Shown here one piece after another: positions 47,631 through 50,722 of a stretch of DNA of 64,000 bases. Each line of letters begins with the position of its first letter. Positions within the stretch are counted from its first letter, which is position 1. The DNA comes from an uncultured Planctomycetota bacterium (GTDB lineage Bacteria; Planctomycetota; Planctomycetia; Isosphaerales; Isosphaeraceae), in contig CAWGMQ010000006.1 in NCBI GenBank assembly GCA_963823665.1, positions 768,001-832,000 on the forward strand. Reading direction: 5' to 3'. The notes under the pieces are model-generated. The model saw nothing but the letters and a program-made list of their open reading frames with translations, had not been told where the DNA came from and searched no databases. Both the position numbers and the translations under genes were made by a program.

Positions 47631-47710
47631 GATTCTGGGGACGGAGCTCATGAATCGACAGAGTCGCGGGTATTTCCAGGCATGTCATGCCAGGTGCGAA
47701 GCCAGAATTG

Positions 47711-47895
47711 AACAGAAGGTAACGAAGGAAACGAAGGGGGGAGCGAAGAGCCTGAAGCGGACGCAGCCAGGAAAGGGCGCGTCGGGGTCTGGATCGTGAC
47801 GAGTACGGCCGTCGGATCGGGAGCGGGAACCATGAATCGAGCGTTCAAAACGGCTGCATTGTCGGGGAATTCTTCGTTACGTTTGTTTGCTTCTG
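47711..47895. repeat. Inverted-repeat element with 9-nt-periodic arms; the right arm is interrupted by the intron
   Basis: Left arm AACAGAAGGTAACGAAGGAAACGAAG (47711-47736). Right arm CTTCGTTACGTTTGTTTGCTTCTG (47872-47895) is completed by TT after the intron (49895-49896). Confidence 0.8.
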
Positions 47896-49894
47896 GTGCG
47901 TCAGGCTAAGTCTCGCTGATCTTGTCAGTTGAAAGGAACTGCCCATGGCAATTGCTCGTTCACCATGAAGCCGACTCGGCGGCGGTGCGGGCAACCGCGC
48001 CGTCGGAGCCCGAGAAGGCGAAGACGTCAGCCGTAATGCGAAAGCGTGAACCCGTTTCGGCCTCGTTAAACGAGTGGTAGCGGTCAACCGTCCAGAAGCG
48101 GCGAAACCAGACACCATCCGTGAAGCAACGAGCACGTGCAGCGGATGGGCTACCCGGGGTGAGAGGGGATGGCGGGCGTCGACAGATCAGTGAGGAACCT
48201 GAGAGGCCCGGCTTGGCGGTCTGAGATCTGGAAGTGATCTCTGACCAACGACCGACGGGAAACCATAACCGCCGTGCGGCCTGGCCGGGAGTAGGAGGGG
48301 GTCGTAGTAGCGACGATACGGCTAACCACCGTGGAGCAAAGGACCCCTGCCAAATTCACGCTTCATCAGAAGTGAGGAGATCCGCTTGGACAAACGTCCC
48401 ACTACGGAAGAACACGGTGGCCTGACCTGGGACCAACAACTGGCTGAGCCAGAAGTGAAGTCTGGGGTCCTGCTACCGCCGAAAGTCTCTGAACTGAGAA
48501 AGAAGCTAGGTCAAAAGGCCAAGCAGGAGCCGAAGTTCCGGTTCTACGCTCTGTACGACCGGATCTATCGGGAAGACGTGTTGCGGATTGCGGCGACCCT
48601 GGTGCTGAATCACAACGGCGCTGCCGGGGTGGACGGCGTCACCTGTCAGGACCTCGTCACATTGGATGACCCTGCATGGGATGCCTACATACGGCAGTTG
48701 CACGAAGAGCTTCGCACCAAACGCTATCGTCCGCAGCCGGTCAAACGCGTCTATATCCCGAAACCGGACGGCCGGATGCGACCGCTGGGAATTCCCACGG
48801 TCAAAGACCGGATCGTCCAAACGGCGGCCATGTTGATACTCGAGCCGATCTTTGAGGCTGACTTCTTGAACTGCTCCTTCGGGTTTCGTCCAGGAAGGAA
48901 TGCTCACCAAGCGATTGACACGATCCGTCAGCATGTTCCCTCCGGGTTTCGCGAGATCTATGACGCGGATCTGAAATCGTACTTCGACACAATTCCACAT
49001 GATGCATTGATCAAGTGCCTGGAACGACGGATTGCCGCCCGCTCCGTGCTGACGCTGATCCGCATGTGGCTGGAAAGCCCAGTCGTCGAGACCGACGGAC
49101 ACGGTAAGACTAAAGTGACTCGGCCGAAACAGGGGACGCCGCAGGGTGGAGTAATTTCACCGTTGCTGGCGAATCTCTACCTGCATTGGTTCGAGAAGCT
49201 GTTTTATCGTTTCGACGGACCTAGTCGCTGGGCCAACGCCAAACTCGTGCGGTATGCCGATGACTTTGTGGTCCTGGCACGCTATCAATCTCAGCGCTTG
49301 ATCGATTGGATCGAGAATCTGTTAGAGGGACGGTTTCGGCTCACCGTCAACCGCGAGAAAACGCGAATCGTCAAGCTGCATGAACCGGGTCAGAGCCTGA
49401 ACTTTCTGGGCTTTGCGATGCGATACGACCGGGACCTCTTTGGCCGCGATCATCGATATCTCAACGTGTTTCCCTCAGTCAAGTCGATGGCTCGCGCCCA
49501 CGACAGAATCCGAGAGATGACTGGGCCCAGGCTGTGTTTCGTCTCCATCCGAGAGGTGATAGACGGTATCAACCGCTGGACAAAAGGCTGGAGCGGATAC
49601 TTCCGTTACGGCTATCCCCGCCATCGGTTTCGGAACCTCAATAGCTTCATGCTGCTGCGCTTGACGCGTCACTTGCAACGTCGCAGTCAGCGAGCCTACC
49701 GTACCCCGGTAGGCAAGTCAGATTACTTCCACCTGCAGAGCCTCGGCCTGCGGCTCCTGAAATGACTTATCGCTGCCTCCCTGCGAATCGCCTTCGATCG
49801 AGAGGATTTGGGCAAGCCGGATGCGGGAAATCTGCAAGTCCGGTTTGAAGAGGGCGGAGGCGACGGGGTCACACCCGTCCCTCCGCTACTCGAC
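47896..49894 (+). mobile_element. Complete group II intron (IIB-like, endonuclease-less IEP)
   Basis: 5' GTGCG at 47896; RT ORF inside; domain V caAGCcggatgcgggaaatctgcaagtccggtttg (about 49813-49847); domain VI hairpin ending ...ctactcgAC at 49894; EBS1 CAGAAG (48093-48098) complementary to the 5' exon CTTCTG. Confidence 0.93.
48386..49765 (+). CDS. ltrA: Group II intron reverse transcriptase/maturase
   Basis: N.GAAGVDG, RVYIPKPDG.MRPLGIPT..DR, SFGFRPGR, GTPQGGVISPLLAN, RYADDF and X domain (GWSGYF); no HNH domain. Confidence 0.96.
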   Translation: MDKRPTTEEHGGLTWDQQLAEPEVKSGVLLPPKVSELRKKLGQKAKQEPKFRFYALYDRIYREDVLRIAATLVLNHNGAAGVDGVTCQDLVTLDDPAWDAYIRQLHEELRTKRYRPQPVKRVYIPKPDGRMRPLGIPTVKDRIVQTAAMLILEPIFEADFLNCSFGFRPGRNAHQAIDTIRQHVPSGFREIYDADLKSYFDTIPHDALIKCLERRIAARSVLTLIRMWLESPVVETDGHGKTKVTRPKQGTPQGGVISPLLANLYLHWFEKLFYRFDGPSRWANAKLVRYADDFVVLARYQSQRLIDWIENLLEGRFRLTVNREKTRIVKLHEPGQSLNFLGFAMRYDRDLFGRDHRYLNVFPSVKSMARAHDRIREMTGPRLCFVSIREVIDGINRWTKGWSGYFRYGYPRHRFRNLNSFMLLRLTRHLQRRSQRAYRTPVGKSDYFHLQSLGLRLLK

Positions 49895-49925
49895 TTTGAT
49901 TCTGTTGAAATCCGAGACCAACATT

Positions 49926-50330
49926 ATGCATCCGCTCTTTGCCAAAGCTGACAAGCTCTTCAGCGAGGTCATTGGTGCCGCCATTGAAGTGCACCGGATC
50001 ATGGGCCCGGGGTTGTTGGAGAGCATCTACGAGCGTTGCTTGCTGCGCGAGCTCGAGCTACGAGGCATTCCGGCTGTGAACCAGGAAGAGGTGGTCATCG
50101 ATTACAAGGGCGACGTATTCAGGGAGAAGCTGAGGTTCGATCTGCTCGTCGATAGTTGTCTTCTGGTCGAGCTGAAGGCCGTCGAGCACGTCGTGCCGAT
50201 TCACAAGGCGAAGCTGCTCAGTTACATGAAACTGCTGAACATCCCGCTCGGGCTGATGTTCAATTTCCATGAGGTCATGCTCGTCGACGGAATTTCGAGG
50301 CTTATGCTGCCTGGCGCGAACCAGCCTTGA
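49926..50330 (+). CDS. GxxExxY protein (PD-(D/E)XK nuclease-like)
   Basis: VIGAAIEVHR.MGPGLLESIYE.CL..EL, RFDLLV...LVELKAV, LLSYMK..GL.FNF. Confidence 0.95.
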   Translation: MHPLFAKADKLFSEVIGAAIEVHRIMGPGLLESIYERCLLRELELRGIPAVNQEEVVIDYKGDVFREKLRFDLLVDSCLLVELKAVEHVVPIHKAKLLSYMKLLNIPLGLMFNFHEVMLVDGISRLMLPGANQP

Positions 50331-50722
50331 ACGGAAGACTCGCCTGGCCAGAGGATCACGGCGATCAAGGAAACAGTGGCCCCAGTCTGGCGGATCGAGT
50401 TTCGGCGCGGTCTCTTCGTGACGAGTATGGCCGTGAACCACACTTCCATCACGTGGCTACGGACACGCGGATCTCGTCGCGCACCGCCCCAAAGAGGAAC
50501 GGCACATACGGTAGCGCGAACGCCGTGAAGATCTGAACGAACGTTTGGAATTCAACTCGGGGTGGTAAAACCGGCCGTTGGAGTAGACTGCAACGGCCTC
50601 CCAGCCGAAGAACTCCGCGTAGAGGCATTGGATCCCGCCGACCGGACGGGTACAGGTCCGCATTAATCGGAATCGAACTGAGTCGAGCTCAGATGCCAGT
50701 CAGCGCCGCCCGAGCCGGGATT

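Follow-up and report, generated by a model that had tools for sequence, protein, structure and literature searches.

For bacterial group II introns, reviews recognize three target specificities, which are terminators, attC sites and homing sites that are unique (PMC4424553). Endonuclease-less introns prime at replication forks, RmInt1 being biased to the lagging-strand template (PMC4424553, PMC5894124), and RmInt2 inserts in both ends of ISRm17 under the same strand rule (PMC5894124). The basal group of class F includes Ge.ur.I1, So.us.I2 and Pe.th.I2 (Toro and Martinez-Abarca 2013, PMC3552965). Ge.ur.I1 is 2073 nt long, with its site given as a 'putative non-coding sequence' (PMC3552965); in Ge.ur.I1-1, 5' splice sites lying 9 and 19 nt upstream serve as alternatives, circles form, and the second exon-binding site (EBS2) is not needed for splicing (Nagy et al. 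2013, PMC3753933). As for small repeats, the octa- and nonanucleotide repeats of Geobacter bemidjiensis (Gbem_R80xx and R90xx, PMC2996986 Table S6) are catalogued without a function, and insertion sequence (IS) elements target repetitive extragenic palindromic (REP) sequences, with 2 of 9 group II introns lying near REPs in a table for P. putida (PMC1525189). Here we analyze a group II intron at positions 47896..49894 of a 64,000-nucleotide stretch from an uncultured Planctomycetota bacterium (contig CAWGMQ010000006.1, positions 768,001 to 832,000), the whole of which is called the window, together with the clade to which the intron belongs. The homing site of this clade is likely a tandem-unit arm of a widespread intergenic repeat family.

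Intron anatomy and guide pairing

The window intron (47896..49894, + strand, 1999 nt) begins with GTGCG at 47896 and ends with AC at 49894, both ends being common to three copies in the genome, and thus carries the GUGYG start and AY end of group II introns. Domains V and VI (49812..49894, +) match the Rfam family Intron_gpII (RF00029, 46.7 bits). The open reading frame (ORF) for the reverse transcriptase (RT)/maturase (48386..49765, +) encodes 459 aa from a putative TTG start, retains an intact YADD motif, and scores 358.8 bits against TIGR04416 (cut-off 300). Its domains are RVT_1 and GIIM only, and it stops about 20 residues past GIIM, giving the RT-X architecture of the class F basal group, devoid of an endonuclease domain. 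The RT also groups with named class F members, in quick trees only, and pairing of both EBS1 and EBS2 with the 5' exon, established by covariation, is IIB-like. Judged from these sequence features, the element is an intact endonuclease-less group II intron of class F type with an IIB-like RNA, ordinary and probably mobile, and the placement of an intron at 47896-49894 by an earlier note on this DNA is borne out by the termini, domains V-VI and the ORF alike. In one contig of an RNA library, 49894 is joined to 47896; this weakly hints at a circle or a tandem, and the contig may come from another organism.

EBS2 (AAACGA, 48068..48073, +) has its core AAC at 48069-48071, and EBS1 (CAGAAG, 48093..48098, +) lies in a hairpin loop with the stem 48088-48091/48098-48101. 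When domain I is folded, the EBS2 segment is fully unpaired and five of the six EBS1 bases are in the loop, which the last G of EBS1 closes through a G-U pair. The two segments thus lie in loops; their sequestration in helices was an outcome that the earlier note had named as fatal to its proposal. They face the 5' part of the right repeat arm, which forms the 5' exon (47872..47895, +) and contains the intron-binding sites IBS2 at -13..-8 (47883-47888) and IBS1, CTTCTG, at -6..-1 (47890-47895). The 3' part of the arm is the 3' exon (49895..49910, +), in which IBS3 is T and one further unit ends at 49910. The expectation that TCGTTT, a perfect partner of EBS2, would be the repeat consensus proved overstated: the sequence is a single variant among the arms, found in 4 of 21, since the sixth base varies.

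The assignment of the guides rests on covariation across homologues, drawn from the best 80 genome loci, the best 80 metagenome loci and copies from relatives. A first set of 58 introns shows EBS1-exon pairing at 311 of 348 positions, where shuffles give 200 ± 7. When all 123 non-redundant introns whose 5' end could be mapped are taken together, EBS1 forms Watson-Crick pairs at 538 of 615 positions (311 ± 10 when shuffled), and the 3-mer at 48069-48071, the EBS2 core, finds its complement in exon positions -12..-7 in 98 of 123 (29 when shuffled). This 3-mer ranks first of 295 domain I positions for covariation with exon -12..-7, followed by its two neighbors. Because kin share sequences, introns were also compared with their nearest neighbors. 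Where EBS1 differs within such a pair, the intron's own exon fits better than the swapped one in 51 of 54 cases (2 worse, 1 tie), and where EBS2 differs, in 35 of 41 (0 worse, 6 ties). The common EBS2 cores among the 123 introns are CAC (40), CGC (35) and AAC (8), opposite GTG, GCG and GTT, respectively. By this sequence covariation, EBS1 is the reader of the unit that is cut and EBS2 the reader of the core of the preceding unit. In 59 of the 66 introns whose end was mapped, the 3' exon opens with C or T, the pattern expected from a fixed G, although the EBS3 base itself was not located by covariation.

Repeat arms at the insertion sites

Excision of the intron from the window rebuilds an inverted-repeat arm, as the earlier note had claimed. 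The intron-less right arm is identical to the reverse complement of left-arm positions 47711-47736 at 21 of 26 positions, and the two are 135 bp apart. The left arm (47708..47736, +) consists of three 9-10-bp units with the outer end TTGAACAG and is followed by the 135-bp spacer (47737..47871).

The window's own genome (16.5 Mb) holds three full intron copies, at 100, 97 and 97% identity, and a 772-nt ORF-less relative at 79%. All four sit in arms, at different units. Their EBS1/exon pairs are CAGAAG/CTTCTG in the window, CGAAG/CTTCG in the other two full copies and CAAAG/CTTTG in the ORF-less relative, whose EBS2 presents CGC opposite exon GCG. Differences between the window copy and the other two cluster around EBS1 and EBS2 and include both sides of the EBS1 stem. 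Exact matches to the arm number 21 genome-wide, against 0 for a reversed control, and a two-unit pattern gives 40 matches against 1. The 21 terminal arms have another unit before them, although the pattern did not require one. The repeat is thus multicopy, and the remaining intron copies insert in the same arm family, so that neither a single-copy repeat nor unrelated insertion sites, the two other outcomes that would have undone the earlier proposal, were encountered. A three-unit pattern with fixed 9-bp spacing gave 3 matches against 2 in the control, the last unit being 10 bp. As a separate observation, the window copy is a mosaic: it is unique around EBS1/EBS2, resembles L003 at intron positions of about 223-1186 and L002 from 1190, for which copies recombining with one another, a switch of template or a chimeric assembly could account.

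Beyond this genome, sites were scored with a unit grammar (core YYBGYK, spacing 8-11 bp). A strict weight matrix built from the GxxExxY arms of 30 other genomes had missed the GTT variant of the window's genome and scored the window site at zero, which led to the looser grammar that was later applied to new data. In the set on which this grammar was devised, the cut unit is present at 71 of 109 sites, a second unit at 54 and a third at 24, with stepwise backgrounds of 8% and 11%. Taking one site per genome, after dropping duplicates and four out-of-clade rows, 56, 43 and 17 of 69 sites have the cut, second and third unit. The unchanged grammar was then applied to held-out metagenome loci, 28 of 80 of which had no mappable 5' end, while 5 sites had too little flank. 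Here the cut unit is present at 40 of 48 sites, the second at 30 of 40 (background 164 of 2259, 7%) and the third at 15 of 30 (background 19 of 164). The third unit lies outside the guide footprint; the sites are therefore true repeats. In quick trees (support 90-93, no bootstrap; So.us.I2 and Pe.th.I2 not included), arm-type sites are spread all over a clade that holds 63-66 rows and spans more than 10 phyla. Its sister is a group that contains the RT of a Nitrobacter plasmid and in which no mapped site is an arm; we take this RT to be Ni.ha.I1/I2, g3, the name being unconfirmed.

Genomes with several copies repeat the pattern. In G037, six copies carry the window's EBS1 and five of them lie in the same arm type, and in G324, 10 of 11 matches are in arms, with the remaining one directly behind another copy. 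All nine copies in G410 lie in one inverted element of about 150 bp, composed of left arm, spacer and right arm; 31 further matches to this element, among the 40 of 72 candidates that were scored, are intron-free. Eight of the copies occupy the right arm and one the other arm, on the opposite strand. All nine are co-oriented with the leading strand by GC skew (binomial p 0.004; skew of the two halves +0.032 and -0.054, from 26 loci), the opposite-arm copy obeying the same strand rule. Of 18 elements in one orientation, 8 have an occupied right arm, compared with 0 of 22 in the other (p 0.0006). No GxxExxY gene was seen beside the G410 element. The G410 introns fall within the clade, are 2073 nt long in eight of nine copies, and match Ge.ur.I1 in length and exon motifs. 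Motifs of Ge.ur.I1-1 are found in L447 at offsets of -9 and -19, which are neighboring repeat units with the G410 unit spacing. Introns stacked one unit apart (L040, L069, L105 and L272) fit each unit being a site.

The gene that begins 31 bp downstream of the window intron is a GxxExxY/PDDEXK_3 gene (49926..50330, +; 134 aa; TIGR04256, PF13366); a 169-aa ORF read from 49821 is an artifact that extends into the intron. A degenerate left arm (50327..50337, +) overlaps its stop codon, as in the intact cassettes of relatives. At 24 of the top 30 GxxExxY loci of the phylum, three units are found on one or both flanks of the gene; the corresponding figure for control windows is 10 of 540. The earlier note had called the target GxxExxY-associated. 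This is right for the arms, which flank such genes, but the intron's target is the arm itself, and the gene adjoins an intron in only 4 of 200 other loci. All five multi-copy genomes have GxxExxY genes, but this carries no information, because such a gene is present in 101 of the 201 genomes from this phylum.

Several features of these cassettes stand on their own. The window's right arm exceeds by one unit the three units that arms of related cassettes have, a short duplication beside the 3' junction of the intron. Spacer positions 47795-47812 recur at 50417-50434, which shows the DNA past the GxxExxY gene to be a decayed left arm plus spacer and the locus therefore a module-gene-module arrangement; comparable tandem modules surround GxxExxY genes in L008-L010. 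Multi-copy GxxExxY cassettes occur in G026 and G036 (L427-L445), and four full G026 copies are 78-82% identical to the window gene. The arms of these cassettes are intact and point away from the gene, the opposite orientation to that of most other GxxExxY loci.

Proposed mechanism and competing explanations

We propose that the excised ribonucleoprotein reverse-splices into single-stranded DNA at the replication fork, with the lagging-strand template preferred. EBS1 would pair with a unit in its first half, this unit would be cut after its G, and the 3' exon would begin with a pyrimidine (EBS3 type). EBS2 would pair with the G-Y-K core of the preceding unit, and the repeat period of 8-11 bp therefore fits the IBS1-IBS2 spacing. 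Any unit in any arm, whichever strand of an inverted element it is on, would be a potential site. Across the clade, in more than 10 phyla, the guides are re-tuned to the local variants CAC-GTG, CGC-GCG and AAC-GTT, and some sub-lineages have switched to other dispersed repeats.

A number of observations weigh against this proposal. The unit grammar is a loose one and had its origin in the first set, and with one site per genome two units are found at just 43 of 69 sites and three at 17. The strand bias comes from one genome, with a skew estimated from short loci. Few of the 21 arms in the window's genome have a partner arm within 400 bp. In G119, 13 of 13 copies lie at a TTGGSTTYG motif and not in arms, while the G011 copies lie mostly at a third repeat. 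A Kiritimatiellae sub-clade and others use non-arm sites, some Acidobacteriota introns (side branch L048, L082, L273) lie at a palindromic repeat, presumably REP-like, and further clade members show no repeat by the unit grammar. An allele of the window locus free of the intron was sought in 41 relatives and in four runs, runs with small shares being set aside; there was none, and none of the four runs spans the stretch. Parasitism of a multicopy repeat, as put forward in the earlier note, is supported and extends to a multi-phylum clade, but several sub-lineages use other repeats.

These other repeats are of interest in themselves. TTGGSTTYG has 85 matches in G119 (0 in the control), 24 in G011 (3 in the control) and 2 in G000. 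In G119 (L205-L217), it forms arrays about 30 bp apart with variable spacers, an unexplained repeat family hosting an intron sub-lineage. The target in G011 (L185-L198, L455, L457) is a dispersed repeat of roughly 200 bp; the two full copies measured there are about 4070 nt long, hence carry a 2-kb insertion, and stand alongside five 660-nt ORF-less copies.

A first alternative is survivor bias, in which the intron homes to any 9-10-nt guide match, genic insertions are purged, and the intergenic arms, rich in AT and pyrimidines, are the commonest harmless matches; the tracking of repeats by guides would then arise only from the sampling of survivors. The minimal guide motif occurs 410 times in the genome (294 in the control), about a tenth of these, or some 40 sites, being arm-like, so that further specificity must come from pairing over a longer stretch, from contacts made by the protein or from selection; this weighs against our proposal and fits survivor bias, as do the poor in vivo splicing of bacterial introns (RmInt1, PMC5894124) and the copies at guide-matching non-arm sites (L222, L188, L191). 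On the other hand, guides equal repeat cores in most homologues (the CAC, CGC and AAC guides counted above), bursts of identical and hence recent copies already lie in a single element family (9 of 9 in G410, 13 of 13 in G119), and third units outside the guide footprint are enriched. Since selection would in either case hold guides to the repeat, the two readings are in part one. We infer that targeting, rather than later selection, produced the pattern, and consider survivor bias as its source unlikely.

Structure targeting of the class C kind, in which the protein reads a DNA hairpin formed by the left and right arms and base pairing is secondary, is less plausible still, and we regard it as highly improbable. 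An inverted partner does lie upstream at the window, L002, G410 and G498 sites, and a protein lacking an endonuclease requires single-stranded DNA. Against this, a full EBS2 is present and covaries, and the cut falls within the would-be stem. Most arms of the window's genome, and most G037 and G324 sites, have no nearby partner, and inverted-match scores upstream of most sites are unremarkable (no control computed). With so few partner arms found, a hairpin requirement is therefore rejected; the inverted-repeat target of the earlier note stands to the extent that the window has a partner arm, but the target need not be a hairpin. A reading in which the intron inserted once in an ancestor and has since been carried along by a mobile GxxExxY cassette, suggested by the gene 31 bp beyond the window intron and by multi-copy cassettes with the same arms in G026, is largely refuted by junctions that differ in unit, arm and strand and whose outer flanks are unrelated, and by the rarity of the gene beside other introns (4 of 200), and can practically be set aside.

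Two further introns were noted in passing. In G000, a second group II intron family (L119-L126) has eight copies with identical 3' ends; the ORF of the single copy read ends, by eye, in an HNH-like region, and each copy precedes a second domain VI-like hairpin, which suggests homing into another intron's tail or a hairpin repeat. In G037, a different group II intron is nested in the RT gene of the L222 intron, just after the YADD codons.

Comparison with known systems

The guide-encoded repeat preference of the clade would be a variation on known retrohoming into multicopy targets, for which no published description was found. More tentatively, and with somewhat less than even confidence, it may amount to a fourth targeting strategy at class level among bacterial group II introns, with the basal class F clade as an old specialist on nuclease-associated tandem-unit repeats that tracks their variants in many phyla through changes in EBS1/EBS2. 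Its introns would stack in arms because every unit is a homing and splice site, would block the arm for the spread of the GxxExxY cassette, and might alter unit number by upstream mis-splicing. The results add a clade-wide small-repeat preference that comes with many natural cases of a guide change matched by a target change, offer an explanation for the alternative 5' splice sites of Ge.ur.I1-1, and support the suggestion of Nagy et al. (PMC3753933) that the class F EBS2, dispensable for splicing, serves homing. They also link an uncharacterized nuclease-repeat system to a testable parasite and point to compact, naturally retargeted endonuclease-less introns of Planctomycetota, Verrucomicrobiota and Acidobacteriota as targetron scaffolds.

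The repeats of G. bemidjiensis share with the intron targets and GxxExxY arms an intergenic position, tandem units, and the cores TCTTTGCG and CCTCTGTG; the accessible parts of that catalogue (PMC2996986) make no link to a nuclease or to introns. No paper linking group II introns with these repeats was found in the literature covered, outside of which lie Simon et al. 2008 and the Zimmerly database. PMC8919778, PMC8643678, PMC3543383 and the myRT preprint, in the parts seen, say nothing of this target. The earlier note's remark that it did not know the target class to be described agrees with this for the link, but the repeats are already catalogued without function in Geobacter. IS elements that target REP sequences (PMC1525189) resemble the clade in being mobile elements that land in a small dispersed repeat, but they do so by transposase recognition and in a different repeat, whereas RNA guides operate here. 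The arms are not REP/REPIN sequences, being tandem non-palindromic units tied to GxxExxY genes (no search for RAYT linkage was made).

Class C introns (terminators, attC sites; PMC4424553) likewise show a class-level preference for harmless multicopy intergenic sites. They lack EBS2 and read a DNA hairpin, whereas in the present clade EBS2 covaries with the exon, the cut lies inside the arm, and the partner arm is often missing; the clade is thus not class C (IIC). With the class F basal group, it shares RT-X without an endonuclease, EBS1 plus EBS2, and GUGYG...AY ends; in the parts seen, the class F papers (PMC3552965, PMC3753933) treat the -9 and -19 sites as IBS1 variants and name neither a repeat family nor a class-level target. 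A functional parallel is the published homing of an endonuclease-less IIB-type intron into an IS, which is also guide-based and directed at a multicopy target whose inverted repeats secure a site on the lagging-strand template, and the opposite-arm copy in G410 resembles RmInt2 in the two ends of ISRm17. In contrast to homing of one intron into one IS, the sites of the present introns lie in a short tandem-unit arm that contains no gene and offers several of them, and the preference is conserved in a multi-phylum clade with co-varying guides.

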